Source of the DNA: an uncultured Opitutaceae bacterium
GTDB lineage: Bacteria; Verrucomicrobiota; Verrucomicrobiia; Opitutales; Opitutaceae
Reading direction: 5' to 3'
Length of the DNA: 43,886 nucleotides
NCBI GenBank assembly: GCA_964551145.1
Contig: CAZKDK010000002.1
Coordinates: forward strand, 1 to 43,886
Shown here piece after piece: positions 10,778-43,886 of this stretch. Positions within the stretch are counted from its first letter, which is position 1. Each line of letters starts with the position of its first letter. Position numbers and translations under genes: made by a program. The notes under the pieces were generated by a model. It was given only the letters and a program-made list of their open reading frames with translations, did no database searches and was not told the origin of the DNA.

Positions 10778-11839
10778 CTACTTGCGCTGCTGCCAGGCGG
10801 CGGCGATCTGCCGGACGATCTCCTCCAGGCTGACGGAGATGTCCCAGCCCGGATAGTGCGCGCGCATCTTGCGGAGGTCCGAGTAGTAGCAGATGTGGTC
10901 GCCGATCCGGTTCTGGTCGACGTAGGTGTACACCTGGGCGCGGCCCGTGCACCGCTCGGCCAGCTTGAAGGCCTCGAGGACCGAGCAGGCATTGGCCTTG
11001 CCGCCGCCGAGGTTGTAGACCTCGCCCGCGCGCGGGGCCGCGACGAAGGCGGCCATGAACCGGGCCACGTCCTGCGCGTGGATGTTGTCGCGCACCTGCT
11101 TGCCCTTGTAGCCGAAGAGGCGGTACTCCCGGGCCTCGAGGTTGCACTTCACTAGGTAGCTGAGGAAACCGTGCAGTTCGACGCCGCTGTGGTTGGGCCC
11201 GGTCAGGCAGCCGCCGCGGAGGCAGCAGGTGGGCATGCCGAAGTAGCGGCCGTATTCCTGCACCATGACGTCGGCGGCCACCTTGGAGGCGCCGAAGAGG
11301 GAGTGCTTGGACTGGTCGATGGTGAAGGTTTCGGGAATGCCGTGGGCGAAGGCGGGGTCGGCGTAGTCCCAGCGCGTCTCGAGTTCGCGGAGGGGAATCG
11401 CATTGGGGGCGTCGCCGTAGACCTTGTTGGTCGACATGTGGACGAACGGCGACTCCGGGCAGGCCTGCCGGACGGCTTCGAGCAGGTTGAGCGTGCCGCC
11501 GGCGTTCGTGTCGAAATCGTCGAACGGGATGGCCGCCGCGCGGTCATGGCTCGGCTGGGCGGCGGTGTGGACGATGGCCGCGGGCTTGAGTTCGCGGACG
11601 AGGGCCAGGACGCCGGCGCGGTCGCGCATGTCGAGCTCGTGGTGGACGAAACCGGGCAGCTCCTGCTGGAGCCGCCGCTGGTTCCAGCGCGTGTCGCCCT
11701 GCGGGCCGAAGAAGACGGCGCGCTGGTTGTTGTCGATGCCGTGGACCTGCCAGCCGAGTTCGCGCGTGAAGAACGTGCCCACCTCCGAGCCGATCAGGCC
11801 GGAGGATCCGGTGACGAGGAGGGTCTTGGGCATGGGCAT
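10778..11839 (-). CDS. Tyvelose/CDP-paratose 2-epimerase-like extended SDR with Phe in place of the catalytic Tyr (FGASK)
   Basis: Start is the ATG at 11839-11837 ([21 protein letters not shown], GxxGxxG). Other motifs are [44 protein letters not shown] and [13 protein letters not shown]. The upstream part of ORF 10778..12100 is Arg/Pro junk. Confidence 0.85.
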
Positions 11840-12003
11840 GGCGGAGGGGCCATGTCTTGCAGCCGCGCGGATCGGTGGCCAGACGATTCTGCGCCGCGGA
11901 ATCCACAGCGCACGGCGTCCCGGTCCGGAGACTTCCCGCACGGGCCGCGGGCGGTCGCTGGATTCGGATTGGCAGCCGGGGGGATTCGCGCCCATGTGGG
12001 GGT

Positions 12004-12504
12004 ATGCTCCAATACATCCGGTCCGCTCGCTCCGCCTCCGCCTGCGATCCCGGTCGGCCCGCGGCGCGGCGCCACTACACGGCTCTGGTCGCGGCGGCAT
12101 TCCTGGCGGCCGCGTCCGCCCGGGGGGTCGAGCGGGTGCTCGAAGTCAGCGCCCCGGCCACGGCCGCGCCCGGCGCGCGCATCGAGGTCACCGTGCGGGC
12201 GAGGACCGATGCCGGCGCCGGGGAGCACATCGGTTTTCTGCACGTGCAGTATTCCGCGGACGGTGGCGGCACGTGGACCGGCTTGTGCTTCGAGCAGAAG
12301 ATCGGAACCGAGGCGACGCGGAAATTCAGCATCACCACTGGCGCGGAGGGCTCGCAGACGCTCGTGCGCGCCCGGGTCGCATTCCGCGGCGGCGTGGCGG
12401 GCGACGTGGACTTTCGCGGCGCGGCGATCAGCTGGCAGGACGACTGGCAGGAGTGGCGGCAGCCGCCGGCGCGGTGGGCCACGACGCATGTGGGCGCGCC
12501 GTAG
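12004..12504 (+). CDS. Small hypothetical secreted protein (166 aa), probably beta-rich
   Basis: Start is the ATG at 12004. A hydrophobic signal-like segment ([20 protein letters not shown]) is followed by [61 protein letters not shown]. Third codon positions are strongly G/C. It is the only plausible frame in this interval. Confidence 0.55.
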
Positions 12505-12509: not shown

Positions 12510-13871
12510 TCAGTGCAGGTTGAACGCGCGCTGCAGCGCTTTGGCGCGCTCGATGTGCATGAACTCCAGCGCGGGCGCGGTGGCAGCGGGGGCGGTGGTG
12601 TACGGAGCTCGCATCAGCCGGCGCATTTCGGTGCCGCGCCAGGCAACGAACGGATCCAGGGAGGCGGGCCACCCGCGCAGGCAAAGCCCGGCCAGGCCGG
12701 CCAGCAGCACGCCGGCCGCCAGCCGGCGCAGCCTTGCCCGTGGCAATGCCTTTTCTATCGCCCACGCCAGCAGCAGTCCGGCGAAGGGCAGGGAGGCGAG
12801 CAGTGAGCTGTAGCAATAGCGCGAGCCGATCGCCGCGAGCAGGCCGGTATGGTAGCGGCCGACCCCGAGCAGCGCGGCGTTGCCGAGGTCGTAGACCAGC
12901 AGCAGAACCAGCAGCGTCCGGATCCGTCCGCGACCCACCCACCAGCCGAGCGCAATCACGACGAGCTTGGTGGCGCCCAGCATCAGCGAAAACGCGGAAC
13001 CCAGGGGCGGTTCGCCGAGCAGGAGATGGCCGGGGTTGAGCAGGAAGTAGGCAAGCGAGAATTGCAGGGCCTCACCCCAATGCCCCGCCATGCTCCGCTG
13101 GTTGCCGCCGGCGAACAGGAGGATGGCCGCCGCCACGGCCGCGGCCGGGAGCAGGCAAAGCAGGGCGGCGGACAGGCGGCGGGATCGGGCCGTCCCGTCG
13201 TGGGCGGACGCGGCGGGCGCCAGGATCGCGAGTGCGAGCACGGCTCCCGTCAGCACGCCGCGGGAGAAGCAGCAGGCGCTGGCGGCGGCAAACAGGAACA
13301 GCGGGAAATGCGCCCGCCAGCTCCAGGCGGCCCTGCGGACCGGGGGCCGCTCCAGCCAGAGCAACCCGAGCAGGAGGAACGTCATGGCGAGCACCGCCGA
13401 CCACTGCACCGACCAGCCCAGCGTTTCCAGGTTGGCGGGCGCGAGGGCGAAAACGAGCTGCGTGAAGACCGCGGCAATCCATGGGAAACCGGCTCGCAAG
13501 AGCAGCCGGCCGACCAGGGCGGTGTTGAGCGCGTGCGTCAGCCACAGCAGCCACAGCATCGCGGCGTAGCTGCCGTGGAAGCCGAAAAGGGCGCCGCCCC
13601 AGAGCAGCTTGAACAAGGGCGCGAAGTTCTCGGCGAAGAACTGCCCCGTCCATTTCCAGAAACCCATCTGCGCGATCTGATCGGTCAGGAACAGATCGTC
13701 CGCGAACCAGTAGAGTTCGGCAAACCGCCGGTGCCAGATCAGGAACGGTGCGAGCGCCGCCAGCCCGAGGAGCCAGGGCAGACCCCGCGGCCACGGCACG
13801 CCCGCCGCCAAAGGGCCGGGTTCCGCAGCGGGCCGGCGGCTGGCGTCGGAACGGGGGATCGGTGCGTTCAT
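12510..13871 (-). CDS. Polytopic inner-membrane protein, putative GT-C-type glycosyltransferase or polymerase-like (function uncertain)
   Basis: Start is the ATG at 13871-13869. There are many hydrophobic helices (LPWLLGLAALAPFLIW, AAMLWLLWLTHALNTALVG, WSAVLAMTFLLLGLLWL ...). An acidic motif follows the first helix (ELYWFADDLFLTD). It is the last gene of the long minus-strand array. Confidence 0.6.
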   Translation of the reverse strand: MNAPIPRSDASRRPAAEPGPLAAGVPWPRGLPWLLGLAALAPFLIWHRRFAELYWFADDLFLTDQIAQMGFWKWTGQFFAENFAPLFKLLWGGALFGFHGSYAAMLWLLWLTHALNTALVGRLLLRAGFPWIAAVFTQLVFALAPANLETLGWSVQWSAVLAMTFLLLGLLWLERPPVRRAAWSWRAHFPLFLFAAASACCFSRGVLTGAVLALAILAPAASAHDGTARSRRLSAALLCLLPAAAVAAAILLFAGGNQRSMAGHWGEALQFSLAYFLLNPGHLLLGEPPLGSAFSLMLGATKLVVIALGWWVGRGRIRTLLVLLLVYDLGNAALLGVGRYHTGLLAAIGSRYCYSSLLASLPFAGLLLAWAIEKALPRARLRRLAAGVLLAGLAGLCLRGWPASLDPFVAWRGTEMRRLMRAPYTTAPAATAPALEFMHIERAKALQRAFNLH

Positions 13872-13943: not shown

Positions 13944-15653
13944 TCACCCCGCGGGTGCCGCTGCCGGCGGCGTGGTCGGCGGGCGGGCGGCCCGGGAAAA
14001 AGACCGCCAGTCGGTCCCGACATCCCAGAAGACGGCGATGACAAACAGCAGCAACATCGGGTAGGCGGAATCCAAATACGTGACCGACAGGCTGGGGAAT
14101 GAGGTGATGTGGACCAGCGCCCCCAGCAGCACGATCGCCGCGCAGGCGCCCCAGGCCGCGGCGGCGAGCACAATCGGGAATGTGAGCCGGCGCTGCCAGA
14201 CCAGGTGCCCGGCTCGCAGGAATGCGACAAGCTGCGCAGCGATCGCGAGCCAGAGCAGGATGTGGCGGAGTACCTTGCCGATCATCTGGAGGACGGACAG
14301 CTTCCAGCTGTCAAGAGCCCCTTGACGGGGCAGCGGCGGATCCAGCGCCGGCGACGGGGCGAGGTTGTCGCGCGACAGGTCGAGGAAGATCTGGAGGGCG
14401 TCGTGATCCCCGATGCTCGCCGGCGGGTAGGCGCTGAAACCGCGGAATGACACCAGGAAATCCGTGAACTCAACCGTCGCCGCGAGCCATTCCCGGGTGA
14501 GTCCGGCGCGCCAGGGCGGCAGGAATCCGCTGCGCCGCGGACCCGCCAGAATCCGGCCGTCGTCGCACGCCTGGTTCACTTCCATGGCGAGCCGGTGGTA
14601 GAACGCCATCGCCTGATCGGCATCATGGCAATATCCCGCCGCCTTCACGGAATCGCGCAGCGCCCACATGAACCAGCCGCCGCCGATCTGGCGCTCCTCC
14701 GAGGGGATGTGGGTGACGAAGCTCGAGGCCCCGGCCCAGCCTTCGCCGATGGGGCCATCGAGGTGGGGACGCAGCAGGGCGAACGTCGGGCTCACCGGAT
14801 AGGCCGCCTCGCGCATCTGCCGCGTGACGGGCACAAAGGGGAGATCGGGACCGGCCCGGACGCGGAGGAGCGCGCCGTAGGCGTCCTTGAATTCGCTGCT
14901 GCGGAACTCCACCGTTCCGAACCAGCCGTAGTGGCGGGCGTTCTCCGCGCACACGATGAACATCGGCACCGCGGCGCACACCAGCGCCAGGCCGCCCGCC
15001 CAGGCCATCGGCCGCCTGGGCACGGGCCGCGCCCGCACGAGGGCCACGACAACGGCCCCGGCCAGCAGCACGACGCTCGGGACGATCCAGACGACGTCCT
15101 CGCGGGTCATCCAGAGCGCCGCGAAGGCGGCACCGAAGAGGGCGGCCCACGGCGCGAGCCGCCGGAAGGGCCCGGCCCGGCGCGCGTACAGGGCGATCAA
15201 GCCGGCGAAGATGAGCAGGGCCAGCGGCGTGGAGATGTGCTGGCGCAGGACCCGGCCGAGCGACGAGGCCTCGAACGACATCGGATTCCAGAGCAGCACC
15301 GCATAGACCGCGAGGCGCGCCCCGCCGCCGCGCACCAGCGGGGCGAGGGCCCGGACGACCGCGGCGCAGGCGCCGGCGTAGGCGAGCTGCTGGGCGAAGC
15401 CGAGCGGCAGCCCGAGGAGAAAGACGAACGCGATCCACAGCGAATAGAACGGGCCCTTGGCCAGCGTGAGCTGGTTGTAGGGGCCGAGCCAGTCGCCGCT
15501 GACGAGCGCATTCGCCAGGTTCATGAACAGGCGGTCGTCGTGTTCGGCGGTGCCGATGGCGAAGATGGCCTGGCCGCGCGTCAGCCAGAGTTTGGCGAGA
15601 GTCAGGGCGATCGCCGCCCAGATCCACCAGCGGTTTTTCCACGAGGCGCTCAT
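13944..15653 (-). CDS. Polytopic membrane protein with a large extracytoplasmic domain, putative GtrC/GT-C-like transferase
   Basis: Start is the ATG at 15653-15651 (MSASWKNRWWIWAAIALTLAKLWL). It overlaps the TGA of the upstream GT2 gene (15652-15650), giving ATGA. An acidic first-loop motif is present (IGTAEHDDRLFMNLANAL). It has ~6 N-terminal TMs, a soluble middle domain and C-terminal TMs. The 259 upstream codons of ORF 13944..16430 are out-of-frame shadow of the GT2 gene. Confidence 0.65.
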   Translation of the reverse strand: MSASWKNRWWIWAAIALTLAKLWLTRGQAIFAIGTAEHDDRLFMNLANALVSGDWLGPYNQLTLAKGPFYSLWIAFVFLLGLPLGFAQQLAYAGACAAVVRALAPLVRGGGARLAVYAVLLWNPMSFEASSLGRVLRQHISTPLALLIFAGLIALYARRAGPFRRLAPWAALFGAAFAALWMTREDVVWIVPSVVLLAGAVVVALVRARPVPRRPMAWAGGLALVCAAVPMFIVCAENARHYGWFGTVEFRSSEFKDAYGALLRVRAGPDLPFVPVTRQMREAAYPVSPTFALLRPHLDGPIGEGWAGASSFVTHIPSEERQIGGGWFMWALRDSVKAAGYCHDADQAMAFYHRLAMEVNQACDDGRILAGPRRSGFLPPWRAGLTREWLAATVEFTDFLVSFRGFSAYPPASIGDHDALQIFLDLSRDNLAPSPALDPPLPRQGALDSWKLSVLQMIGKVLRHILLWLAIAAQLVAFLRAGHLVWQRRLTFPIVLAAAAWGACAAIVLLGALVHITSFPSLSVTYLDSAYPMLLLFVIAVFWDVGTDWRSFSRAARPPTTPPAAAPAG

Positions 15654-16840
15654 TGCGGGTCCTTGCGGGTGTCGAGCCGGAGCATGTTGAGGAAGAAATT
15701 GGTCATGATCACCTGGCAGCCGAGCGTGAGGCTGAGCGCGCCGGGAATCACCCAGCGCAGCATCTGGCCGGGAACCAGGGGTCCGAATCCGCGCTGGCGC
15801 CAGAGCCAGACGGAAAACACGGACAACCCCAGCCCGGCCGCGACGAGGATCAGTCCGGCAATCGTGCCCGTCTCGAGGGTGACGATCCGGAGCCACCGGG
15901 CGAAGCGCGCATCGGGGGAGCGCAAACCGGCCTGGATCGCGAAGAATTTGGCCAGCACGGAGAACGCGACCGCCTGGAAGCCGACGAGCACGGCGATCGC
16001 CGCGAAGAGCAGCGTGTTGATGTCGAACTCGACGCGGCCGACCCGGAAGGGGCCGGGGAGCAGGGCCGCCCCTGCCAGCAGGCCGGCGGCCATCAGGACG
16101 AGGCCGGGATAGAGGAACAGCCAGCGCGGGCTGAACAGGAGCATGAATCGCAGGTGGCGCCAGCCATCGCGCCACGGCCGGAGATGGGGGGGGCGGCCGC
16201 GGCCGTCCGGCCGCAGCACCGAGGGCACCTCGGCGATGCGCAGGCCGAGCAGCGAGGCCTTGATGATCATCTCCGTGGCGAACTCCATCCCGGTCGTCCG
16301 GAGATCCATCCGCCGGTAGGCCTCGGCCGAGAATCCCCGCAGGCCGCAGTGAAAATCGCCGACCGGCGTGCGGAACAGGCGCCGGCCGATCCAGGACAGG
16401 AACGGATTGCCCAGATAGCGGTTCTTCCACGGCATGGCGCCGTCCGCGATGCCGCCGCGGAACCGGTTGCCCATGACGAGGTCGCTGCCGCCGCGCAGCT
16501 TCTCGACGATCAGCGGAATCTGCCCGAAATCGTAGCTGGCGTCCGCGTCACCCATGACGACGAACCGCCCGCGCGCGGCCGCAATACCGGCCCGCAGGGC
16601 GTTGCCGTAGCCGCGTGGCGCGACAGCGACGACGGTCGCCCCTTCCCGGGCGGCGATCGCCGGTGAATCGTCCGTGCTGCCGTTGTCGGCGACCACGATC
16701 TCGGCGGCGATCCCGCCGTGGCGGACCGCCGTCGTCGCCTCCCGGATGCACGCCGCCAGCGTGCGGGCCTCGTTGAGGCAGGGCAGCACCACCGTGAGTT
16801 CCGGACGCGGGCCGGCGGCGGCATCTAGAGGGGCGGACAT
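15650..16840 (-). CDS. Family-2 glycosyltransferase with C-terminal 4-TM domain (polyprenyl-phosphate sugar synthase type, GtrB/ArnC/DPM1-like)
   Basis: Start is the ATG at 16840-16838 (MSAPLD..); the track start at 16873 is a GTG. Motifs are LTVVLPCLNEARTL, IVVADNGSTDDS, GYGNALRAG and VVMGDADASYD (DxD). Four hydrophobic helices follow (WLFLYPGLVLMAAGLLAGAALL ...). Confidence 0.85.
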   Translation of the reverse strand: MSAPLDAAAGPRPELTVVLPCLNEARTLAACIREATTAVRHGGIAAEIVVADNGSTDDSPAIAAREGATVVAVAPRGYGNALRAGIAAARGRFVVMGDADASYDFGQIPLIVEKLRGGSDLVMGNRFRGGIADGAMPWKNRYLGNPFLSWIGRRLFRTPVGDFHCGLRGFSAEAYRRMDLRTTGMEFATEMIIKASLLGLRIAEVPSVLRPDGRGRPPHLRPWRDGWRHLRFMLLFSPRWLFLYPGLVLMAAGLLAGAALLPGPFRVGRVEFDINTLLFAAIAVLVGFQAVAFSVLAKFFAIQAGLRSPDARFARWLRIVTLETGTIAGLILVAAGLGLSVFSVWLWRQRGFGPLVPGQMLRWVIPGALSLTLGCQVIMTNFFLNMLRLDTRKDPQ

Positions 16841-16898
16841 GCGGACGCCACCCAAGGGGCAATTCGGGGTCACGACAAGCCTCGTGTGTTTCGCGGCC

Positions 16899-19181
16899 TC
16901 ATCCGGGCCGGGATGCCGGGTCGCCCGGGATTCGCCGCCGGCGGCGCGCCAGCACCGCCGGCAGCGCGCATCCCGCCAGGCCGAGCGTCGCGGCCAACGC
17001 CAGCACGCGGTGTGTCGGTTCCGCCCGCTCGGCGCGCAGCTGGGCGAGCCAGCGGCGGCCGAAATCCGCGTCGTCGGTGGCCGCCGGCCGCGCGACGCCG
17101 AGCCAGCCGTGTTGTTCCGCGTTGCCGTCGAAGAGGAACAGCGTCGCCTGCCAGTCCCGGAACGCGGCGGCGTCCACCATCCACATGATGACCGCCTCGC
17201 GGGGCTCGGTGGGCGGGACCTCGGCCGCCCGCCACTGCTCCGCGCCAGTCGCCGGGTTCACGAAGCGCCACCGGATCGCGTTGCCCGGCCAGTTGGGCCA
17301 TCCGCTGATCGGCGTCGACAGATACCGGTGCCGCACCGTCGCCGGGTCGCTGCGCAGGATGCCGGTGAATGCGGTGCGTCCCGCCAGGAGCGTGCCGTAC
17401 CAGTACAGGCGCGCGGCGGCGGGCTCCGTCTCCACCGCGCCGACCACGTCCTCCGGCTGGATCCGCCGGTCGGTGTCGCTGTGGAATACGGGGTCGACGA
17501 ACTCGACCTCGTCCGACGCCGGGGAGTAGGCCGCCTGCCAGCGCTGCCGGATGTCGAACAGGAAGGGCTGCGGCCACGCGAGCCAGGCGGCGGCGGCGAG
17601 CGCGGTGCCTCCGCACCAGGCCAGGAACAGCCGCGGCCGGGTCCAGCCGGAGGGGGACGGCGCCGCGGCCGCCTCCGCCGGTGCCGCGCGGGATCCGCCG
17701 GCCAGGACCAGCGCCAGGCCGAGCAGCGCACCGGCGGCCGCCAGCCAGCGGCCGGCCGGCGGCAGCCAGCGGGCGAGCGCGCCCAGGCGCCCGTAATCCG
17801 CGCGCGCCTCGGCGGCCCCGGTTTCCGGCGGAAGGAGGGCGCGGAAGCGGGGTTTGCCCAGCAGCTCGATCACGGTCGGCGGGTAGGTGTAGAGCGTGTC
17901 GCCGATCTTCTCCTGCGAGAGGGTGGCCGGGTCGCCGGTGGCGAGAAACGCGCGGACCGCGGCCAGGTTCTGCGCGTTGACCGCGGGCCGGCGCTCGAGG
18001 TTGTAGAGCGTGTGGCTGGCGGTCGATTCGTGCCAGAGGCCCGTGGCCGAGATGCCGATCCAGACCGCCGCCAGCACGGCGACCGCGGCCCGCCGGGCTC
18101 GGGCGGGTGCGGCCAGCCAGAGCACGCCCAGGCTCGCGGCGTTCACGAGGTAGCCGAGCGCGAGGAAATCGCAGTAGCGAGAGACAAAGCCGGCCGTGTC
18201 GCCTCCGCGTCCGTAGCCGATCGCGGCGGCCTGCGACGCCACCCACAGGCCCACGGCGAGGAGAAAGGCCTCGTGCCCGGTCCCGCGCTGGCGGCCGAGG
18301 CACCGGCCGGCGAAGACCAGGAACGGGAGGTACATCAGGAAGGCCCAGCCGGGGTGGGGCAGCGGCCAGCCGAGCTGCCGCAGGCAGACGTCGAGCGCCA
18401 CCCGCCAGGTGTCGGCGCTGTGCCCGGCGGTGACCGTCAGCGGCGGGGACAGCGCGAAGAACAGGACGGCCCCGAGCGCGGCCAGCGCGAGGCCGGCCGC
18501 GGCCCCGCGGCGGTCCCCCTCCCCGCGCCGCAGGCGCAGCAGGAGGAGCGGCGCGGCGGCGGCGTACGCGAGCACGCCCGAGTGCTGCGTGAACAGCACG
18601 AGAACGCCGGCCAGCTGTCCGATCCACCAGCCGGGCGAGAAGCCCGGCCGGGCGGCGATGCCCCAGAGGTAGACGAGGGACAGGCCGACCTGGAGGAAGA
18701 CGAGCGACTGAATGCCCCACAGGGTGTTCTCCCACGTGAACGGCAGCGCGAGGACGAATCCGGCGAACAGCGCGAAGACCGCGCCGAGCCGGCGGCCGAG
18801 GGCCGGGGCGGCCGTGCCGAGGAACAGCCAGATCGCGGCGCCGTACAGCAGGGCGTTGACGGAGGTCTCGAGCAGGTTGTTCCACTGGCCGTTCAGCCGC
18901 GCCAGGGCGAACGACAGGAGGCGCGTCAGGACGGGCCAATGGTCGTTGAGCGGGGCGAGGAACGCGTTCCATCCCAGGCGGCCGTCCGCCCACGGGCCGA
19001 GCAGGTCGGCGGCCGTGCTCTTCCACTCGTCGCGGAAGGGGAGGATGGTGCCGTACTCATGGATCAGCTCGAGCCGCCCGCCCGCGGCCAGCAGCGCGCC
19101 GGCAAGGGCGGCCAGCAGCCACCAGCCGCGCCCGCGCCCGGCGGCGTCCGGGGGCGTCACTTGATCTCGATGTCCGTCCAT
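16899..19181 (-). CDS. Large polytopic membrane protein (760 aa) with soluble C-terminal domain and terminal TM + Arg5 tail; putative GT-C-like
   Basis: Start is the ATG at 19181-19179 (MDGHRDQVTPP..GWWLLAALAGALLAAGG). An in-frame GTG at 19160 would instead give a GTGA overlap with the upstream stop. An acidic first-loop motif is present (ILPFRDEWKSTAADLL), followed by many TMs. The protein ends ..AEPTHRVLALAATLGLAGCALPAVLARRRRRIPG. The rest of ORF 16899..21827 is shadow of the next gene. Confidence 0.65.
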   Translation of the reverse strand: MDGHRDQVTPPDAAGRGRGWWLLAALAGALLAAGGRLELIHEYGTILPFRDEWKSTAADLLGPWADGRLGWNAFLAPLNDHWPVLTRLLSFALARLNGQWNNLLETSVNALLYGAAIWLFLGTAAPALGRRLGAVFALFAGFVLALPFTWENTLWGIQSLVFLQVGLSLVYLWGIAARPGFSPGWWIGQLAGVLVLFTQHSGVLAYAAAAPLLLLRLRRGEGDRRGAAAGLALAALGAVLFFALSPPLTVTAGHSADTWRVALDVCLRQLGWPLPHPGWAFLMYLPFLVFAGRCLGRQRGTGHEAFLLAVGLWVASQAAAIGYGRGGDTAGFVSRYCDFLALGYLVNAASLGVLWLAAPARARRAAVAVLAAVWIGISATGLWHESTASHTLYNLERRPAVNAQNLAAVRAFLATGDPATLSQEKIGDTLYTYPPTVIELLGKPRFRALLPPETGAAEARADYGRLGALARWLPPAGRWLAAAGALLGLALVLAGGSRAAPAEAAAAPSPSGWTRPRLFLAWCGGTALAAAAWLAWPQPFLFDIRQRWQAAYSPASDEVEFVDPVFHSDTDRRIQPEDVVGAVETEPAAARLYWYGTLLAGRTAFTGILRSDPATVRHRYLSTPISGWPNWPGNAIRWRFVNPATGAEQWRAAEVPPTEPREAVIMWMVDAAAFRDWQATLFLFDGNAEQHGWLGVARPAATDDADFGRRWLAQLRAERAEPTHRVLALAATLGLAGCALPAVLARRRRRIPGDPASRPG

Positions 19182-24000: not shown

Positions 24001-24017
24001 GGCGGAGCGGTGGGCGA

Positions 24018-31230: not shown

Positions 31231-31410
31231 GCCGCGCGGGGAGGGAGTGGGGGTGGCGAGGCTTGTAGCCGATTCCATGCGCCCGGACAAGCGCCGCCTG
31301 CAACGCCGGTTGATTCAATCATCGCTCCGTAGATCTCCGGCGCCCGCCGGTTCACCGTCGTGGCCAGCTGGCTCTTCATGAATGCGCCGTGAGTGTCACG
31401 GAAATCGGCG

Positions 31411-35326: not shown

Positions 35327-35342
35327 TTGTATTGACGCGACC

Positions 35343-36366: not shown

Positions 36367-38613
36367 TCATTCCTGCCCGGCCGCGAGGGCGCGGGCCAGC
36401 GCGAGGTGCTGCGGGAGGATGCGTTCGATCGAGAAGGTGGTTTCCACGCGGTGGCGGGCGCGCGCGGCCATCTCCCGCGCGCCCGCCGGGTCGGCCAGCG
36501 TCCGCTGCAGCGCCGCGGCCAGCGCATGGGTGTCGCCCGGCGGCAGGAGCACGGCCTCCTGGCCGTCGCGCACGATCTCCGGGACGCCATGCACGCCGGT
36601 GGACACGATGGGCAGCTCGAAGGCCATCGCCTCGAGGACGACGCGCGGGAATGACTCCTCGTAGCTCGTGCAGACGAAGAGGTCGGCCGCGCCGTACGCG
36701 GCGTAAACGTCCGGGGATTCCGGCAGGACCCGGAGGTTGGCGTGCCCGAGATCGCGCACGAGGTCCGCGAGGTCGCGGTCGTAGGGGGTGTCGCGCCCGC
36801 CGACCATCAGGAACCGGGCGCGTGCGGCGAGCGCCGGATCGCGCCGCCAGAGCAGGTCGACGGCGCGCGCGAAGAGGGTCTGCCCCTTGCGCTCGCAGAC
36901 GGAGCCGATGTTGACCACCAGCCATTCGCCGTCCGCCGCGGCGGCCCGGGCGCGCAGCCCGGCGCGGGGGTGGGCGGCGCGGAAGGCGTCGATGCCGGCG
37001 AGGTCGATCCAGCCGGGGTTGAGGCAGAAGTTCGGCCGCACCGCGAGGTCGTCGTAATAGCGACGGGTCGCGGCGGTCAGGAACGAAACCCGGGTGGCGC
37101 GGGCGAACGCCTCGGCCACGACCGGCAGCGCGGCGGCCGCCTGCGCCTCCGGGAAAAAGCCGGCGGGCGGGGTGCTCTCGTGGATATAGAGGAGCGAGGG
37201 CCGCCCGGCGGCTTCGGCGGCCAGCACGGCCCAGGCGGAGGCCAGGGTGTTCGCGACGACCAGCTGGGCGCCGGACCAGTCCGCGTGGGCGCCGATCGCC
37301 CGGATCTCGCGGCGCAGGGCGCGGGCGGAGCCCGCGGCCGCCAGCGGCGACAGATCGAGCACGCGCACGGTGGCCCCGAGCTGCTCGAACCGGGGGCGCA
37401 GCGGGCCGTCGCGGCCGGACACGACGTCGAGCCGGGTTCCGCCGGCGGCGAGGGCCTGCGCATATTCGGCCAGGAACAGCGGCGCGCCCTCCCGGTTGAG
37501 GTTGTGCGTGACGAGCAGCACGCGGCGCGGCGGCCCCGCGTCGGCCGAGGCCGCGGTCGGCGCCGACGGCGGCGGCGCGGACGCCCGGCGTGCGGGGGCC
37601 CGGAGGCGGTAGTCCCGCCGCAGGCCCCGGGTCTCGGCGCGCCGGGCCGGGCCCGGCGCCAGGGGCACGCCGGCGGACGCATAGGCCGCGCGGAGGGCGC
37701 GGAGCGCCCGCCAGAACGTCCACGGCGAGTAGGGCGGGTAGGGGCGCTTCTCGTGCTCGCGATCCTCCGTCCAGGTGCGCTGGACCTGCGCGAGGTGCCA
37801 GCTGCCGTCCGCCAGCTCGGCGCAGATCCGCAGGCAGCGCGGCTGCGGCAGCTGGGCGGGCACGTCGATGAAGCCCTCGAGGGCGCAGTCGTCGGCGCGC
37901 GCGCTTTCGGGATGGCGCATCTTCACGCCGGCGAACGGGCCCCCGTGGCGGAGGGCCTGCCAGACCTGCAGGTCGAAGGAGGCGAGGACGCGGCGGATCG
38001 ACTCGGTCTCGTGGAAAAGCCAGCCCAGCACGTTGAGCCGGCCGAATCCGGCGCGGGCCAGCGCCGCGGGCTCGTCGAGATGCCCGTGGAAGGGCCGGTG
38101 CGGGAAGCGGGCCGCGCACGGCCAGGGCGTGGCCCCCGCGATTTCCGCGGCCAGCTCCCGCAGCGGCAGGGCCGGCTCCGCCCGGATCCGGCGCAGGAGG
38201 CGCCGGAGCGCCCGGGCGAACTCGTGGGCCAAAAGCGGCGCGGGCGGCGGCGCGGGCGCCGCCGGGGGCCCGGCCGGCGCGGCGGTCACGGTCACCGTGG
38301 CCACGGCCGTCCAGGCCCCGGCGAGGTCGGCGGCCTCGAACTCGAGGCGCGTTCCCCCCGGCGCGAGGTCGAGGGCGAGCTCGAATCCGCCGGGCAGATA
38401 CGGCGTCGGCCAGCCGAACGCCGCCGCCAGGTCCCGGCGCGGATGCCCGAGGACGGCGGCGTGCACGCCATCCGGCGCGCGCGCGCGAAGATCGACGAAA
38501 TGGTGTCCCGGCTTCGGGGCCAGCCAGCCGCGCAGCAGCTGCCGGCCGGCGGCGAGCGACTCGCCCGCCGCCGGGTGCTCGAGAAAGAAGCGGCTGATGG
38601 CGGTTTCGTGCAT
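36367..38613 (-). CDS. Glycosyltransferase (748 aa): N-terminal tandem beta-rich module + GT4 domain; paralog of 32117..34354
   Basis: Start is the ATG at 38613-38611 (MHETAISRFFLEHPAAGE..LRGWL). The second module copy is PHRPFHGHLDEP..FGRLNVLGWL..LRICAELADGSWHL. GT4 has VLLVTHNLNREGAPLFLAEY..GSVCERKGQT..SYEESFPRVVLEAMAF. Confidence 0.85.
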   Translation of the reverse strand: MHETAISRFFLEHPAAGESLAAGRQLLRGWLAPKPGHHFVDLRARAPDGVHAAVLGHPRRDLAAAFGWPTPYLPGGFELALDLAPGGTRLEFEAADLAGAWTAVATVTVTAAPAGPPAAPAPPPAPLLAHEFARALRRLLRRIRAEPALPLRELAAEIAGATPWPCAARFPHRPFHGHLDEPAALARAGFGRLNVLGWLFHETESIRRVLASFDLQVWQALRHGGPFAGVKMRHPESARADDCALEGFIDVPAQLPQPRCLRICAELADGSWHLAQVQRTWTEDREHEKRPYPPYSPWTFWRALRALRAAYASAGVPLAPGPARRAETRGLRRDYRLRAPARRASAPPPSAPTAASADAGPPRRVLLVTHNLNREGAPLFLAEYAQALAAGGTRLDVVSGRDGPLRPRFEQLGATVRVLDLSPLAAAGSARALRREIRAIGAHADWSGAQLVVANTLASAWAVLAAEAAGRPSLLYIHESTPPAGFFPEAQAAAALPVVAEAFARATRVSFLTAATRRYYDDLAVRPNFCLNPGWIDLAGIDAFRAAHPRAGLRARAAAADGEWLVVNIGSVCERKGQTLFARAVDLLWRRDPALAARARFLMVGGRDTPYDRDLADLVRDLGHANLRVLPESPDVYAAYGAADLFVCTSYEESFPRVVLEAMAFELPIVSTGVHGVPEIVRDGQEAVLLPPGDTHALAAALQRTLADPAGAREMAARARHRVETTFSIERILPQHLALARALAAGQE

Positions 38614-38622: not shown

Positions 38623-41600
38623 CTACCCGAGGGCGGCCTCGCGGCACAGCGCGAGGTGCCGGGGAAGCAGGCGGTCGGCGTCGAAGCTGCGGAGCACGCG
38701 CGCGTAGGCCATCGACGGCATCGCGTCATCGCCGGCGAAATGCGCGGCGAGCGCCTGCTCCAGGGCGGCGCACAGCTTGAACGGGTCGCCGGCGGGCACG
38801 AACAGCGCCTCGTCGTTGCCGGTCAGCATCTCGGGAATGCCGAACACGTCGGTGCTGACGATGCGCACCCCGAAGGCCATGGCCTCGAGCAGGACGCGCG
38901 GGAACGATTCCTCGAAGCTGGTGCACACGAGGAGGTCGGCCATCCGGAAGTAGTCGTCGATGGCGCCGGTCTCGGGGACGACCTGCACCGCGTCGAGGCC
39001 GAGGAGCGCGATGTCCTGCTGCACGGTCTCCAGGTAGAGGCCCTCGCGGGCGCCGACGATGAGGAACCGCGGGGCGGGCCGGCCGGGAAAGTCCGCGGCG
39101 TAGCGTTTGCGGAGCAGATCGATCGCGCGGATGTAGATATGCTGGCCCTTGCGCTCGCAGACCGAGCCGACGTTGATCGCCAGGGGCGCGTCGGGCGGGA
39201 TCCCGTACTGGCGCCGCAGGGCGGCGCGGTCGGCCGCCTCGCGCCGGCGCCGGAGTCCGGCGACGTCGACCGAGCTCCGCACGATCCGGAAGTTGTCGTT
39301 GCCGTTGTGCTCCTCGAACACGGCCAGCGTGGCCCGGGCGCTGAAGGCGACCCGCGTGGCGGTGCGCAGCGCCTCCTCGGCCGGCCCGCGCAGCCGCGGC
39401 GGGACGGCGGCCCGGGCAAACAGCTTCTCGACCGGGCTGCTCTCGTACACGTACAGCAGCGACGGCTTGCCCGCGAGCCGGGCGAGGGGCACCGCCCAGA
39501 AGCACAGCAGGGTGTTGGCCACGACGAGGTCGGCGTCGTCGAGGCGGTGGCCGGCCGCGAAGGCGGACAGGGCGGCGGCGAACGGGGCGGGATCCTCCGC
39601 CCGGAGCAGCGGCGCGGCGTCCCAGATCTCGACGGGGATGCCGAGCGCCTCGTACCGGGCGCGCAGCGGGCCCTCCTCCAGGCTGGCCACGCGGACGGTG
39701 ACGCCCGCCTGGCGCGCGTGGTGGCGGGCCTGCTCGAACATCAGGATCGGGGCGCCCTCGAACTTCAGGTTGTGCGTGACGAACAGGAGGCGGAGCGGGC
39801 GCTCGACCCCCGCCTGGCGGTGGTGGTGCGGATTGAGTCGCGGCGCCGCCGGCGGGAACTCCATGCCCCCGCTCAGGTAGGGATCGCGCCAGCCGCCGTG
39901 CCGCGCGAGGAAGGCGACGTGTTCCTTCTCGGTGTAGCGGGCGCCGCGCGAGGCGCTGCCGGCGTGCTGGAGCGTCGCCTGCGGCGTGTAGACGACGCGC
40001 CCGCCGCGCTGCTGGACGCGCAGGCAGTAGTCGACGTCGTTGTAGGCGACCCGCAGCCCGCCCTCGTCGAATCCGCCGAGCTCCCGGTAACGGGCGGTGC
40101 GGGTGAGCAGGCAGGCGCCGGTGACCGCCGCGACGTTGCGCGCGGCATGCGGCAGGAACAGGTAGCCGAGATCGTCGGCCGGCTCGTGCTCGAACAGCAC
40201 ATGGGGCAGGCCGTCCTCGGTGCCGAGGCTGATGCCGGCGTGGTTGATCCGCCCGTCGGGATAGAGCAGGCGCGCCCCGACGACGTCGACCCCCGGCACG
40301 GAAAGCCAGCCGGCCATGTCCTCGAGCCAGCCGGGCGCGAGGGCCTCGACGTCGTTGTTCAGGTGCAGCAGCAGGGGAGTGGCGGCCCGGGCCGAGCCGA
40401 GGTTGACGAGGCGCGAATAGCTGAAGCCCCCGGGCGCGGGCGGAGCGGTCACGACCTCGCAGGCGAGATCGGAGCGCGCCGGCAGCGCCCGCAGCAGGGC
40501 GATCGTGGCGGGGTCGTCGGAGGCGTCGTCGACGACGACCACCCGGACGCTTTCGCGCGGCACGGTGCGGGCGAGCGCATCGAGGCATTTGCCGAGGAGG
40601 TCGGAGCGGTTCTTCGTGGGGATGACGACGGTGACCGGGTTCTCCCGCAGGATCGCGGGATCCCAGCGCAGCTGGTGCAGGCAGAGCGCATGGCGGCGCG
40701 CGAAGTCCGGCAGGAACGGCGCGGCGCGCAGCCCGCGGCGGGCCAGGGCCTCGGCGACGGCGCGGCGCGCCGCGTCGAAGAGGTAGCCCTTCTGGTCGCC
40801 GCGCGAGGCGGTGCTGGCGGGATGCGCGCGCCAGTGGTAGGCGATGAACGGCACGTGGACGACGCCGTCCGGGCCGAGGAGCTCGAAGCAGCGCAGGAAG
40901 AGGTCGATGTCCTGGGCGCCGGTGAAGTCGGGGCGCAGGCGGCCGGCGCGCTCCACGAGCTCGCGGCGGATGACGCTGAGGTGGTGCGTGAAATTGTGCG
41001 TGAGCGCCATCTCGGGGCTCCAGCCGCCCTTGAACTGCGGATCGAACCGGCGGCCGGATTCGTCGATCTTGTCCTCGTCCGTGTAGAAGTAGCCCGCGTC
41101 CGGCCGGCGCCGGATTGCGCGGGCGACGTGCAGCAGCGCGTCGGGCGGGAGCAGGTCGTCGTGATCGACGAGGCCGACATGGCTGCCGGTGGCGACGTCG
41201 AGCGCCGAGTTGGTGGCGCGGGCGATATGGCCGTTTTCCGCGCGGAACACGGGCTTGATGCGCGGGTCGTCGCGGGCCGCATGTTCGAGGATGCGGCGCA
41301 CGTGGGCGTGCGGCGAGGCGTCGTCGGCGATGCACAGCTCCCACCGCGGGTAGAACTGAGCGCGGACCGAGTCGAGCAGCTCGCGGAGGTGGCGCTCCGA
41401 GGTGTCATGGACGGGGACGAGCAGGCTGACCAGGGGTCCGGCGTCCGCGGCCAGTTCCCGGGCCTCGGCCTGCAGCGCCGCCGTCAGCCGGGGGGTGAGC
41501 CGGTTGTGCCAGACCCAGCGGGCGTAGGGATCCTCGTCGCGGCGGCGCACGACGGCCGGCGGCAGGCGGGCGGGGGCGTCCCGGCCGAGGGTGGAGGCGA

Positions 41601-42591
41601 GATGGCTCCGCAGCCGCCGGACCTCGCTGCGGAAGCGCCCCCGGTCCTCGAGCCGGAACCGCCGGAGCAGCACGCCGCGCAGCAGGGCCAGTTCGCACTT
41701 GAGGAAGAGGCGCGGCCGGTAGACGGGGATGGGCCCGGCGTGCTCGTCGTGCCGGTCGAGGTGGAGCCGGCGGGCGGCGACCAGCTCGCGGATGCCGCCG
41801 GCCCGTTCGGCGAAGATCCTCAGGTTGACCGGACTGGGGGCGTCGGCGCGGATGTCGACCAGCCCGTAGTAGCCCGAGCGGACAGCGTTGGCGTGCTCGC
41901 GGTGTTCGGCGGCGACGTCGGCGCGGTCCTTCGGGTAGATCAGCCGGCTTTCCGTGGCGGTGCCGGCCGTGGCGTGCAGCCGCAGGATGTCGGTGCCGAT
42001 GCCGAAGGCCCAGCCGGTGACGCGGAACTTGTCATACTGGGCCTTGAGCCAGTAGCCGGGGTTCTCGACGTTGCCGTGGAATCCCCGGCTGCAGGGAACG
42101 TCGCTGTTGAAAAGCAGGACCTCGTCCAGCACGCGATCGGTCTCGGCGCAGAGGCGGACGAAAGAGGCGCGGTGGAAATGCCGGTAGAGATACTGGAGGG
42201 TCTCGAAGACAAGCTCGGTGCGCAGCCGGCGAAGGGGGCGCGGGGTGGGGGGCAGCGCCGCGGTGGCGAGCGGGGTTCGGAAGAACTCCCGCCATCCGCC
42301 GCCGGCCTCGAGGGTGTCGAGGGCCAGCTCGCGGGCGCCCGACCAGATGCGCACCTGCTGGCGGAATCCGTTGCGCCGCGCCGCAGGATCGCCGGCGAAC
42401 AGCGGCTGGATGTCCGGCCGGTCGAGTCCGTAGAGGCCGAGGAAGACGACGCCGTCGACCCGCGCGCGGAGGTCGAGGCATTCCCGGCCGGCGCCCGGAT
42501 AGAACCAGCCGGTGATCTCCATATCCGGCGACGCGGGCCTCCAGTCGAGGGGGTGGTCGACGTGGAAGGCGAAGGGGGCCGGCGCGGTCAT
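38623..42591 (-). CDS. Multidomain glycosyltransferase (1322 aa): N-terminal tandem module + GT2 (intact DDA/DxDD) + GT2 + GT4; paralog of 27334..31230
   Basis: Start is the ATG at 42591-42589 (MTAPAPFAFHVDHPLDW..ITGWF). GT2-1 has VSLLVPVHDT..LCIADDASP..VGLVDHDDLL..YTDEDKID. GT2-2 has VTVVIPTKNR..VVVVDDASDD..LHLNNDV..YNDVDYC. GT4 has LLFVTHNLKFEGAPILMFEQ..GSVCERKGQH..SFEESFPRVLLEAMAF. The gene ends 9 nt before the start of the next gene. Confidence 0.85.
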   Translation of the reverse strand: MTAPAPFAFHVDHPLDWRPASPDMEITGWFYPGAGRECLDLRARVDGVVFLGLYGLDRPDIQPLFAGDPAARRNGFRQQVRIWSGARELALDTLEAGGGWREFFRTPLATAALPPTPRPLRRLRTELVFETLQYLYRHFHRASFVRLCAETDRVLDEVLLFNSDVPCSRGFHGNVENPGYWLKAQYDKFRVTGWAFGIGTDILRLHATAGTATESRLIYPKDRADVAAEHREHANAVRSGYYGLVDIRADAPSPVNLRIFAERAGGIRELVAARRLHLDRHDEHAGPIPVYRPRLFLKCELALLRGVLLRRFRLEDRGRFRSEVRRLRSHLASTLGRDAPARLPPAVVRRRDEDPYARWVWHNRLTPRLTAALQAEARELAADAGPLVSLLVPVHDTSERHLRELLDSVRAQFYPRWELCIADDASPHAHVRRILEHAARDDPRIKPVFRAENGHIARATNSALDVATGSHVGLVDHDDLLPPDALLHVARAIRRRPDAGYFYTDEDKIDESGRRFDPQFKGGWSPEMALTHNFTHHLSVIRRELVERAGRLRPDFTGAQDIDLFLRCFELLGPDGVVHVPFIAYHWRAHPASTASRGDQKGYLFDAARRAVAEALARRGLRAAPFLPDFARRHALCLHQLRWDPAILRENPVTVVIPTKNRSDLLGKCLDALARTVPRESVRVVVVDDASDDPATIALLRALPARSDLACEVVTAPPAPGGFSYSRLVNLGSARAATPLLLHLNNDVEALAPGWLEDMAGWLSVPGVDVVGARLLYPDGRINHAGISLGTEDGLPHVLFEHEPADDLGYLFLPHAARNVAAVTGACLLTRTARYRELGGFDEGGLRVAYNDVDYCLRVQQRGGRVVYTPQATLQHAGSASRGARYTEKEHVAFLARHGGWRDPYLSGGMEFPPAAPRLNPHHHRQAGVERPLRLLFVTHNLKFEGAPILMFEQARHHARQAGVTVRVASLEEGPLRARYEALGIPVEIWDAAPLLRAEDPAPFAAALSAFAAGHRLDDADLVVANTLLCFWAVPLARLAGKPSLLYVYESSPVEKLFARAAVPPRLRGPAEEALRTATRVAFSARATLAVFEEHNGNDNFRIVRSSVDVAGLRRRREAADRAALRRQYGIPPDAPLAINVGSVCERKGQHIYIRAIDLLRKRYAADFPGRPAPRFLIVGAREGLYLETVQQDIALLGLDAVQVVPETGAIDDYFRMADLLVCTSFEESFPRVLLEAMAFGVRIVSTDVFGIPEMLTGNDEALFVPAGDPFKLCAALEQALAAHFAGDDAMPSMAYARVLRSFDADRLLPRHLALCREAALG

Positions 42592-42766
42592 CGAGACCGA
42601 TGTGCATAACTCGCCGGATGGCGGACAGTAAAGCCTCTTCCGGAACGCCCGCTGTCGTGACATGCCCCGGACGGCCCGCGGCCGGGCGCGCACGCGAGGG
42701 TGGGCCCCGCGAACCCGGGCAAAATAGAGGTTGGCAGTCTTGGGATTGTCTATTTGGGAGAATACC

Positions 42767-43886
42767 ATGCTGGCTTCCCCTGCCGCTACCCCCGACCGGC
42801 TCGAGCGGGCGATCGCGATCGCCATCGGCGTCCTGGCGCTGGGATTCCATGCGTGGGGAGTGTCGGTGGGCTGGCACAATGCGAGCCTGCCCGGCAACGA
42901 ATTCCGCCAGACCCAGACGGCGATCACGGCGCTCTTCGTCCAGCGCGACCGCGATTTCTCACTGGCTTATCCGACGCCGGTGCTCGGCAAGCCCTGGTCG
43001 ATCCCGTTCGAGTTTCCGCTCTACCAATGGACGGTGGTGGTCGTGAGCGACGTCACGGGGCTTTCGCTGATGCACGCCGGGCGCGCGGTGAGCATCGCCT
43101 GCTTCTACCTGGCGCTGCCGGCGATCTGGCTCCTGCTCGGCCGGCTGGGCCTGGCGCCCACCCGCCGCATGCTGGTGCTGGCGGCGGTCCTGACCTGTCC
43201 GCTCTACGTCTTCTATGCGCGCGCGTTCCTCATCGAGACCATGGCGCTGATGTTCAGCCTCTGGTTCCTGCAGGCGTACGTGGCGACGGTGGAGCGGCGC
43301 AGCTGGGGCTGGCTGGTGGTGGCGAACGTGGCGGGACTCGGGGCGGGGCTGGTCAAGGTGACGACGTTCATGCTCTACCTGATACCGGCGGGCGCATGGT
43401 CGCTCGCCTGGCTCTGGCAGGCGCGCCCGCGGCCCGGCGGGCCGGGCGGCGGCTGGTCGCCGCTGCGGTGGACAGCCGGCGGCTGGTCGCCGTTGCGGCG
43501 GACCGCCGTCTGGATCTCGGCCGCCACGGCCATCCCCTTTGCCGCCACCTATGGATGGATCCGTTTCGCCGACGCGGTCAAGATGCTCAACCCGTCCAGC
43601 CGCAACCTCACCTCGGCCGCGACGAACGCCTATAATTTCGGCACGTGGGACACGCGGTTCGCTTCCGTCATCTGGCGCCAGCACGGGGAGATTGTCTTCA
43701 GCGAGGTGATCTCCGCGACGGTGCTGGCCGTGATTGTCGCGCTCGGCCTGCTGTTCGCCGGGCGCTGGCGACGGTGGATCGCCTGGTGCGTCGGCCTGTT
43801 CATGGCCGTGCAGGTCAGGTTTCCGATCCTTTACGCCTGGCATGGTTACTACTACGTCGCCAACGCGGTGCTGCTGATGACGGCGG
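42767..43886 (+). CDS. Polytopic GT-C / ArnT-PMT-like membrane glycosyltransferase, N-terminal ~373 aa (continues past the window edge)
   Basis: Own translation from the ATG at 42767, preceded by GGAG (42757-42760): MLASPAATPDRLERAIAIAIGVLALGFHAWG..LPGNEFRQTQTAITALF..KPWSIPFEFPLYQWTVVVV..FLIETMALMFSLWFLQAY.. It has many TMs. It is divergent from the 38623..42591 gene. It is not in the ORF track because it runs off the edge. Confidence 0.75.
   Translation, partial: MLASPAATPDRLERAIAIAIGVLALGFHAWGVSVGWHNASLPGNEFRQTQTAITALFVQRDRDFSLAYPTPVLGKPWSIPFEFPLYQWTVVVVSDVTGLSLMHAGRAVSIACFYLALPAIWLLLGRLGLAPTRRMLVLAAVLTCPLYVFYARAFLIETMALMFSLWFLQAYVATVERRSWGWLVVANVAGLGAGLVKVTTFMLYLIPAGAWSLAWLWQARPRPGGPGGGWSPLRWTAGGWSPLRRTAVWISAATAIPFAATYGWIRFADAVKMLNPSSRNLTSAATNAYNFGTWDTRFASVIWRQHGEIVFSEVISATVLAVIVALGLLFAGRWRRWIAWCVGLFMAVQVRFPILYAWHGYYYVANAVLLMTA
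43448..43507 (+). repeat. In-frame 30-bp tandem duplication (2 units) inside the GT-C gene
   Basis: The units are ggcggctggtcgccgctgcggtggacagcc and ggcggctggtcgccgttgcggcggaccgcc. They encode GGWSPLRWTA and GGWSPLRRTA in a predicted loop. Confidence 0.8.

Follow-up and report, generated by a model that had tools for sequence, protein, structure and literature searches.

Escherichia coli O8/O9a (WbdA, WbdD, Wzm-Wzt) and Klebsiella O-antigens are assembled in an ATP-binding cassette (ABC) transporter-dependent manner, in which a terminal cap is read by the carbohydrate-binding domain of Wzt. Mycobacterial arabinogalactan and streptococcal rhamnan also receive periplasmic or extracytoplasmic decoration by GT-C glycosyltransferases (GTs) after export. 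The addition of side chains to O-antigens by GT-C enzymes has been documented as well, including a GT-C protein with a C-terminal carbohydrate-binding module (CBM), for the GT136 system of Citrobacter youngae O1/O2 (PMC11127046). In the streptococcal and lactococcal Rgp/Gac rhamnose-rich polysaccharides, a backbone made in the cytoplasm is exported by an ABC transporter and receives variable side chains on the outside from GT-C enzymes that use undecaprenyl phosphate (Und-P) sugars (PMC9574508). Here, we analyze a 43,886-nt stretch of DNA (the window) that is an entire contig of a metagenome-assembled genome of an uncultured soil Opitutaceae bacterium (Verrucomicrobiota) and in which glycan genes reach both ends. 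The features described span 10778-43886, the middle 33 kb of a cluster that measures at least 70 kb. With a probability of about 65%, we consider that this cluster makes a cell-envelope heteropolysaccharide (O-antigen or capsule-like) by an ABC-transporter-dependent route followed by extensive periplasmic glycosylation. The logic of such a pathway is known; the locus differs by its scale with nine GT-C-type genes in the strain, and further by an unmatched N-terminal region of its GTs, a displaced wzm, conserved 487-aa and 449-aa neighbors of wzt, and a family-wide core.

The first-pass annotation, made from the letters of the window alone, had reported that Wzm/Wzt, Wzx, Wzy, Wzz, outer-membrane polysaccharide export (OPX) and polysaccharide co-polymerase (PCP) proteins, initiating transferases of the WecA/WbaP type and the ligase WaaL are missing. 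This holds for every called gene of the window at E <= 0.01. It says little about the pathway, since the window spans a contig from end to end and the cluster continues past both ends. Near-identical ENA contigs from a different assembly of the same sort of sample extend the window. A 32-kb contig that matches the last ~6.25 kb of the window (37639-43886) at 99.4% identity adds ~25.6 kb rightward (coordinates prefixed L004), another one that matches window positions 3-14848 at 99.9% identity adds ~2.8 kb leftward, and the window with both extensions amounts to ~72 kb examined. When an ABC exporter and an initiating transferase were sought in these flanks, a gene for a 490-aa Wzt (L004:11897-13369) was found 12-14 kb past the right end of the window, and neither a Wzm nor an initiating transferase. 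The Wzt protein matches ABC_tran (E 4e-23) and carries the Wzt_C domain (Pfam E 8e-28, 97.6 bits vs a cut-off of 30.4). Its best PDB relatives (E 1e-73), which we take to be the Aquifex O-antigen exporter Wzt, are followed by TarH/TagH and by mycobacterial RfbE. The same layout is seen in the complete genome of Lacunisphaera limnophila. It was thus the contig boundary that made an exporter appear to be missing, and the alternative that the first-pass annotation had raised, an assembly line with a different export logic, is not supported because a Wzt with Wzt_C stands in the same locus just past the right end. The cluster that emerges is of the ABC type, while most of its genes have no close characterized homolog.

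The G+C content of 69-76% leaves long open reading frames (ORFs) in many frames, and the coding frames were therefore fixed by third-position GC. Gene products were scanned against Pfam and NCBIfam, and paralogy was assessed by all-against-all BLAST. From 10778 to the window end, 17 genes were called (g1-g23 are gene numbers of the window; SDR, short-chain dehydrogenase/reductase; TM, transmembrane; SAM, S-adenosylmethionine; AF2, AlphaFold2):

g7, 10778..11839, minus strand: SDR sugar-nucleotide epimerase/dehydratase-like (Pfam Epimerase E 5e-38)
166-aa protein, 12004..12504, plus strand: signal-peptide-like N-terminus (translation; ENA gene call on the same strand)
g9, 12510..13871, minus strand: 453-aa GT-C-fold membrane protein (AF2 model; Foldseek)
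g10, 13944..15653, minus strand: 569-aa polytopic protein with a ~220-aa periplasmic insert (AF2; Foldseek)
g11, 15650..16873, minus strand: GT2 with about four C-terminal TM helices (Pfam Glycos_transf_2 E 1e-21)
g12, 16899..19196, minus strand: 765-aa GT-C-type membrane protein (hhalign to the g9 and g15 families)
g13, 19157..21520, minus strand: 787-aa polytopic protein with one C-terminal beta-rich module (TM profile)
g14, 21553..24045, minus strand: 830-aa GT-C (PMT_2-type) with one C-terminal module (33% identity to g15 over 815 aa, E 2e-85)
g15, 24018..27263, minus strand: 1081-aa GT-C (PMT_2) with three tandem C-terminal modules (Pfam PMT_2 36.9 bits vs a cut-off of 26.1)
g16, 27334..31278, minus strand: multidomain cytoplasmic GT (Pfam GT2 + GT4; 40% identity to g22 over the full length)
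g17, 31411..32037, minus strand: SAM-dependent methyltransferase (Pfam Methyltransf_23 E 7e-12)
g18, 32117..34354, minus strand: common N-terminal region and GT4 (Pfam; paralogy)
g19, 34532..35326, plus strand: sulfotransferase-like (Pfam Sulfotransfer_3 E 5e-4, below cut-off)
g20, 35304..36218, plus strand: paralog of g19, 49-51% identity (BLAST; motif inspection)
g21, 36367..38613, minus strand: common N-terminal region and GT4 (Pfam; paralogy)
g22, 38623..42591, minus strand: common N-terminal region, GT2, GT2 and GT4 (Pfam)
g23, 42767..43885, plus strand: N-terminal 373 aa of a 715-aa GT-C with a C-terminal module, truncated by the contig end (weak PMT_2 match)

Outward from the right end of the window follow the full 715-aa g23, a 643-aa GT4 preceded by a 202-aa coiled-coil protein, and a 714-aa GT-C; then a 474-aa methyltransferase-GT2 fusion, a 297-aa methyltransferase, a 957-aa GT2, a 338-aa methyltransferase and the 490-aa Wzt; and, beyond Wzt, a 449-aa protein with two TM segments, a metallo-beta-lactamase-fold protein, a 487-aa protein of PCP topology, MarR and CDP-3,6-dideoxyhexose genes. 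The left extension holds the full SDR g1, a 256-aa GT2, RmlC and RmlD.

The postulated lipid-sugar GT2 was found again in g11, whose best NCBIfam matches are AglJ, dolichyl-P-hexose transferase (DPhHxTase), PpgS and ArnC, all under the equivalog cut-offs; together with its C-terminal TM helices, this makes g11 a predicted polyprenyl-phosphate-sugar synthase. In the 474-aa fusion of the right flank, the GT2 part also best matches polyprenyl-phosphate hexose synthases of NCBIfam. This soluble protein (L004:18217-19641) joins a SAM methyltransferase to an AglJ/dolichyl-P-hexose-synthase-like GT2, is 60-65% conserved across Opitutaceae and may make a methylated lipid-linked sugar donor.

Such donors could be used by the row of polytopic proteins around g11. 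The AF2 model of g9 (pLDDT 92.8) has GT-C proteins as all of its 18 best Foldseek PDB matches; STT3, Pmt4, PglB, AglB, AftA and PimE are among the top ones, with AftD and Emb lower down. The 113 homologs in the g9 family are all annotated as hypothetical, none has a Pfam domain, and the family profile found no match among PDB sequences. For g10 (AF2 model pLDDT 87.4), the top two Foldseek matches are the ArnT structures 5F15 and 5EZM (probability 1.0, TM-score 0.31). We regard g10 as a probable ArnT-like GT-C with moderate support, owing to the low TM-score; its family of 265 homologs is devoid of Pfam domains too. The g10 and g9 genes are adjacent and separate here and form one fused ~995-aa protein in several genomes (e.g. 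P0480), which suggests that they act together as a two-part enzyme. Reading these ~995-aa relatives of g10 as fusions with the GT2 g11 turned out to be wrong; they are g10-g9 fusions. The g12 family is widespread (1849 homologs) and again without a Pfam match, but hhalign connected it to the g9 family (95%) and to the PMT_2 region of g15 (92%), whereas its profile gave a single, non-significant match among PDB sequences, the EmbC C-terminal domain (E 0.09). The truncated g23 is full-length (715 aa) in the locus L001, and its family, of which 66 homologs were collected from related loci, aligned with the g15/g14 family at 99.7% over 592 columns in a profile comparison. With g14, g15 and the 715-aa form of g23, g13 has only the C-terminal module in common, and its membrane domain gave no profile match.

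None of g9, g10, g12 and g13 matched Pfam (E <= 10) or NCBIfam (E <= 1). Neither g10 nor g13, compared as single-sequence profiles, matched the g9 or g12 family, the g10 family profile reached only 21% against the g12 family, and an iterative hidden Markov model search in a small local ORF set was too shallow to connect the GT-C families. An acidic residue near the N-terminus is invariant in the g9 family (D58), nearly invariant in g12 (D56) and invariant as part of an HDD motif in g10 (D39); in each case it would be placed in the first periplasmic loop. Of the seven proteins that had been called GT-C-like, g9, g12, g14, g15 and g23 could be assigned to this class, g10 with the moderate support mentioned above, and g13 stays a candidate. 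Among the three membrane families without a Pfam model (g9, g10, g12), two are GT-C and one is probably GT-C. Two further GT-C genes lie in the right flank, one of them the full-length g23, and the nine GT-C-type genes of the strain fall into at least four sequence families, with four of the nine coming from the three families that Pfam does not match.

The pairing of a polyprenyl-phosphate-sugar synthase with a GT-C that acts after polymerization and export resembles GtrA/B/C of Shigella and Salmonella and the GT136 system of Citrobacter, and as in Citrobacter youngae some of the GT-C proteins bear a C-terminal carbohydrate-binding-type module. Unlike the Gtr systems with their one GT-C, there are nine GT-C-type genes here from at least four families, three of which lack a Pfam match; furthermore, no flippase gene was recognized and two candidate lipid-sugar synthases are present, one fused to a methyltransferase domain. 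In mycobacterial arabinogalactan and lipoarabinomannan (GlfT1/2, Wzm-Wzt Rv3781/3783, Aft/Emb), a cytoplasmic polymer exported by an ABC-2 transporter also meets a GT-C battery, some members of which have CBM-like domains, and RfbE is among the PDB relatives of the Wzt found here. However, the present host is a diderm Verrucomicrobium, its donor synthase belongs to GT2 instead of being a UbiA-type phosphoribosyl pyrophosphate transferase, DprE1/E2 genes are absent, and the GT-C proteins show no sequence-level orthology to Emb/Aft. Conserved backbone genes, ABC export and GT-C decoration are likewise shared with the Rgp/Gac loci, and rmlC and rmlD stand at the left flank here; those Gram-positive systems, in contrast, anchor their glycan to peptidoglycan via LytR-CpsA-Psr (LCP) enzymes, and no LCP gene is found in this locus.

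Lectin-like modules had been ascribed to three of the GT-C proteins. The repeats are real: a C-terminal beta-rich module of ~130 aa occurs once in g13, once in g14 and three times in g15 (five copies in total), and 81 copies in 77 proteins were found across the local set of related loci. The lectin part of the assignment is less firm. Matches to NPCBM (PF08305, CBM51-like) were obtained for 4 of 23 module copies and all are sub-threshold, the best one, linked to the g13 module, at E 0.0025 and 18.3 bits vs a cut-off of 23.9, and a PDB profile search with the module found nothing. A carbohydrate-binding role of the module is plausible but not shown.

The cytoplasmic part of the cluster is formed by g16, g18, g21 and g22, four paralogs with a common N-terminal region of ~300 aa. 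The first-pass annotation had described four multidomain cytoplasmic GTs with up to three catalytic domains, and this is what we find: g22 combines GT2, GT2 and GT4, and g18 and g21 have one GT4 domain each. The region of g16 that aligns with the first GT2 of g22 gave no Pfam match. In g22, the best PDB match is the bifunctional chondroitin polymerase K4CP and lies in the GT2 part. The ~300-aa N-terminal region found no match in Pfam (E <= 10), NCBIfam (E <= 1) or a PDB sequence profile search, and 119 near-full-length copies of it are present in the ORFs of related loci and the window. It resembles a tandem of two related units of ~100-130 aa each.

Like ABC-dependent O-antigen systems, the locus has a Wzt with Wzt_C, multidomain GTs of the polymerizing type, methyltransferases by wzt, a short coiled-coil protein by a GT4 gene, and no Wzy/Wzx; no match to the Wzx (Polysacc_synt), Wzy_C or WaaL families was found in the ~72 kb. 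It departs from them in the unmatched ~300-aa region of its GTs and in a core that is conserved across genera and not serotype-variable, and also in that the Wzt-adjacent methyltransferase lacks a WbdD match and wzm is not adjacent.

A SAM methyltransferase and a sulfotransferase had been proposed as chain-modifying or chain-terminating enzymes analogous to WbdD. That g17 is a SAM methyltransferase is borne out by its Methyltransf_23 match. The gene of the 338-aa methyltransferase comes right after wzt in ten metagenome loci (Wzt 42-84% identical) and in Lacunisphaera. WbdD was not among its PDB sequence matches (E <= 1), so that the comparison with WbdD stands only as an analogy, and the coiled coil is a separate 202-aa protein here, unlike the single-protein methyltransferase/kinase and coiled-coil ruler of WbdD. 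The sulfotransferase assignment of g19 is backed by motifs rather than by score: at 20.8 bits, it stays below the Pfam cut-off of 27, but both motifs for binding of 3'-phosphoadenosine-5'-phosphosulfate (PAPS), HIPKTAGLT (5'-phosphosulfate-binding, 5'-PSB; consensus PKxGT) and WVRDPVQRVAS (3'-phosphate-binding, 3'-PB; consensus RxPxxRxxS), are intact, and the 3'-PB stretch aligns weakly with the sulfotransferase structure PDB 3RNL. In the paralog g20, the Lys, Arg and Ser that would bind PAPS are missing; g20 had no match in Pfam (E <= 10) or NCBIfam (E <= 1) and is probably not catalytic. The 338-aa methyltransferase, g17 and g19 are candidates for a capping function, and none of the three matches WbdD.

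To assess how widespread the locus is, all proteins of the extended locus were mapped onto 39 related genome loci (L052, L054 and L068 below are loci of relatives). The named homologs of g22 all come from Opitutaceae (Oleiharenicola, Lacunisphaera, Opitutus, Cephaloticoccus and Didemnitutus) with 59-87% identity and nearly equal lengths of ~1320 aa. The synteny search that the first-pass annotation had suggested revealed a recurring order in ~20 Opitutaceae loci of several genera, namely coiled-coil protein, GT4, GT-C genes, g22, g21, g18, g16 and again GT-C genes. How many GT-C and GT4 genes are present differs among these loci, with both classes interleaved. The complete Lacunisphaera limnophila chromosome (CP016094) has an upstream block of PCP-like protein, 400-aa protein, Wzt, 338-aa methyltransferase and large GT2, and its GT/GT-C array is longer than the one described here.

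The proposed pathway builds on what was observed: which domains the genes encode, the folds and kinship of the GT-C proteins, a Wzt with its Wzt_C in the same locus, and family-wide synteny. An ABC-dependent route is in keeping with a Wzt that carries a carbohydrate-binding domain, with the methyltransferase conserved beside it, with multidomain GT2/GT4 enzymes and with the absence of Wzy/Wzx, and the lipid-sugar GT2 genes with the GT-C battery fit glycosylation in the periplasm after export. From these, we infer the enzymatic steps one by one, along with the cap, the donors and acceptor and where the glycan ends up, as follows. A lipid-linked primer would be supplied by an initiating transferase encoded elsewhere. 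On this primer, g22, g21, g18, g16 and the 957-aa GT2 and 643-aa GT4 of the flank could polymerize the backbone in the cytoplasm from precursors provided by the SDR, Rml and CDP-dideoxyhexose genes. Methylation by g17 and the 338-aa methyltransferase, and possibly sulfation by g19, might then follow at the repeat units or at the non-reducing end. Wzt_C would read the finished chain, and Wzt would export it with a Wzm encoded elsewhere. In the periplasm, the nine GT-C-type enzymes would add side chains or further segments with polyprenyl-phosphate sugars from g11 and the AglJ-like GT2 fused to a methyltransferase as donors, and the C-terminal beta-rich modules may hold the acceptor glycan.

Several observations weigh against this pathway. 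No ABC2_membrane protein (Wzm) was found in the ~72 kb of window and extensions or beside wzt in L068 and Lacunisphaera, and no initiating transferase, WaaL or OPX protein in the ~72 kb; none of the called genes matches a GtrA, SMR, MATE or Wzx-type flippase for lipid-linked donors. All evidence for Wzt stems from a conspecific contig and relatives rather than from the assembly to which the window belongs. As a GT-C, g10 has only moderate support, and the g13 membrane domain is unclassified. Lastly, core GTs with 59-87% identity across genera are atypical of hypervariable O-antigen loci, and the PCP-topology protein by wzt hints at a capsule-type route, so that the end product may be an O-antigen or a capsule.

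In regard to the absent Wzm, none was found within the ~49 kb walked around the g22 ortholog of Lacunisphaera limnophila either. A 277-aa candidate in Lacunisphaera was ruled out as it has no TM helices, and the 449-aa protein was ruled out as an aberrant Wzm given its two TM segments and lack of an ABC2_membrane match. In distant relatives, however, a 274-294-aa protein with five to seven predicted TM segments (three in one locus) directly precedes wzt, and those of L052 and L054 clearly match ABC2_membrane (E 7e-24 and 2e-20). We infer that wzm is located elsewhere in the genome.

The hint at a capsule-type route leads to the best-surviving alternative, a capsule or exopolysaccharide instead of a lipopolysaccharide O-antigen: Wzm/Wzt would export the chain, the 487-aa PCP-like and 449-aa two-TM proteins would carry it across the envelope, and ligation to lipid A-core would not take place. 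The 487-aa protein (L004:7021-8484) has a TM segment at each end and a long helical middle, as expected of PCP topology, along with a weak Wzz match (E 0.003) that is below the cut-off. The 449-aa protein (L004:10270-11619) consists of two similar beta-rich halves next to its TM segments, and both proteins adjoin wzt in the strain, L068, Lacunisphaera and the distant L052. The conserved core, unlike variable O-antigen loci, would suit a capsule, as would the lack of a WaaL gene. WaaL is usually encoded apart from O-antigen clusters, though, and its absence therefore means little. Given also that no OPX (Poly_export) gene was found and that Wzt_C domains are known from O-antigen exporters, we judge this alternative unlikely, although it deserves to be kept in mind.

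Compared with an ABC-exported and periplasmically decorated glycan, a GT-C row devoted mainly to protein glycosylation is very unlikely. PMT-/STT3-like enzymes would then transfer sugars from polyprenyl-phosphate donors to secreted or envelope proteins, and a shared precursor supply would explain why they lie next to the GTs. The PMT_2 match of g15 and the best structural matches of g9 (STT3, Pmt4, PglB) would agree with this, and a 1289-aa secreted NHL/RCC1/immunoglobulin (Ig) protein is encoded nearby at 979-4848. Yet g9 lacks an STT3-type periplasmic domain, the GT-C genes interleave and co-vary with GT4 genes in many relatives, the C-terminal modules weakly resemble the carbohydrate-binding NPCBM, and the NHL/RCC1 gene was not seen within ~10 kb of the g22 ortholog in the loci of relatives. 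Least probable of all are two or more unrelated glycan loci side by side, an ABC-dependent polymer and a separate lipid-sugar/GT-C pathway, as might be read from transcription units in differing directions (g19/g20 and g23 on the plus strand) and from the ECF sigma/FecR/TonB-receptor block and NHL/RCC1 protein that part g7 from the rml genes, since gene order and interleaved gene classes are conserved in ~20 genomes of several genera and the spacing is operon-like (40-nt overlap to ~130-nt gaps), continuous from 34354 down to 12510.

Going beyond a decorated ABC-exported polysaccharide as such, we tentatively raise the possibility, which we would not yet favor, of an Opitutaceae-wide pathway in which the conserved exported backbone is a scaffold only and an expandable GT-C battery in the periplasm generates most of the structural diversity, perhaps also most of the mass. 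This would be an arabinogalactan-like logic that arose independently in a diderm phylum, with a battery that includes GT-C families without a Pfam match (g9, g10 and g12, with g13 maybe another one) and the split-or-fused g10-g9 pair, with the 487-aa and 449-aa proteins as partners of Wzt, and with a wzm that moved away.

Soil, peat, rhizosphere and freshwater all commonly harbor Opitutaceae, and the surface glycans of Verrucomicrobiota are, to our knowledge, almost uncharacterized. Our search of a collection of papers found no description of this cluster. If the proposed pathway is correct, the cluster represents a conserved and, because Lacunisphaera and Oleiharenicola are cultivable, genetically tractable entry into the Opitutaceae envelope. 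It would show in nature how many GT-C enzymes decorate a single scaffold exported by an ABC transporter and would supply three or four GT-C families without Pfam models along with a 130-aa module in 77 proteins of related loci.

The sequence itself is present only in DNA runs, from rhizosphere and peat. In two soil metatranscriptomes, short contigs with 90-93% identity cover parts of g15, g16, g17 and g22, which suggests that relatives transcribe these genes; such contigs could be DNA carry-over and define no operons here. The CDP-3,6-dideoxyhexose set at the far right (L004:2-5779) comprises an RfbF-like nucleotidyltransferase, an RfbG-like 4,6-dehydratase, RfbH (NCBIfam equivalog, 687 bits), a reductase and an SDR, together with an N-terminal transketolase fragment. 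It looks strain-specific, since the 4.3 kb past MarR in the 80%-identical L068 matched no protein of the extended locus.

At the left end, SDR sugar-nucleotide enzymes had been expected in the plural, whereas g7 is the one SDR within 10778-43886. Its start is probably at 11839, which gives 353 aa and matches the ENA gene call. The active-site YxxxK motif reads FGASK (window 11282-11296), a Tyr to Phe exchange, while the neighboring SDR g1 keeps YGATK; the g7 enzyme may be inactive or non-canonical. Between g7 and the SDR/GT2/rmlCD genes, a block at 979-10659 interrupts the glycan genes with an extracytoplasmic function (ECF) sigma factor, FecR, an STN/TonB-receptor set, a 148-aa carrier-protein-like gene and the NHL/RCC1/Ig protein. 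Next to g7, the minus-strand ORF 12075-12482 is probably spurious given its low-complexity product, and the plus-strand gene at 12004-12504 fits better; the two antisense ORFs have their third codon positions in common.

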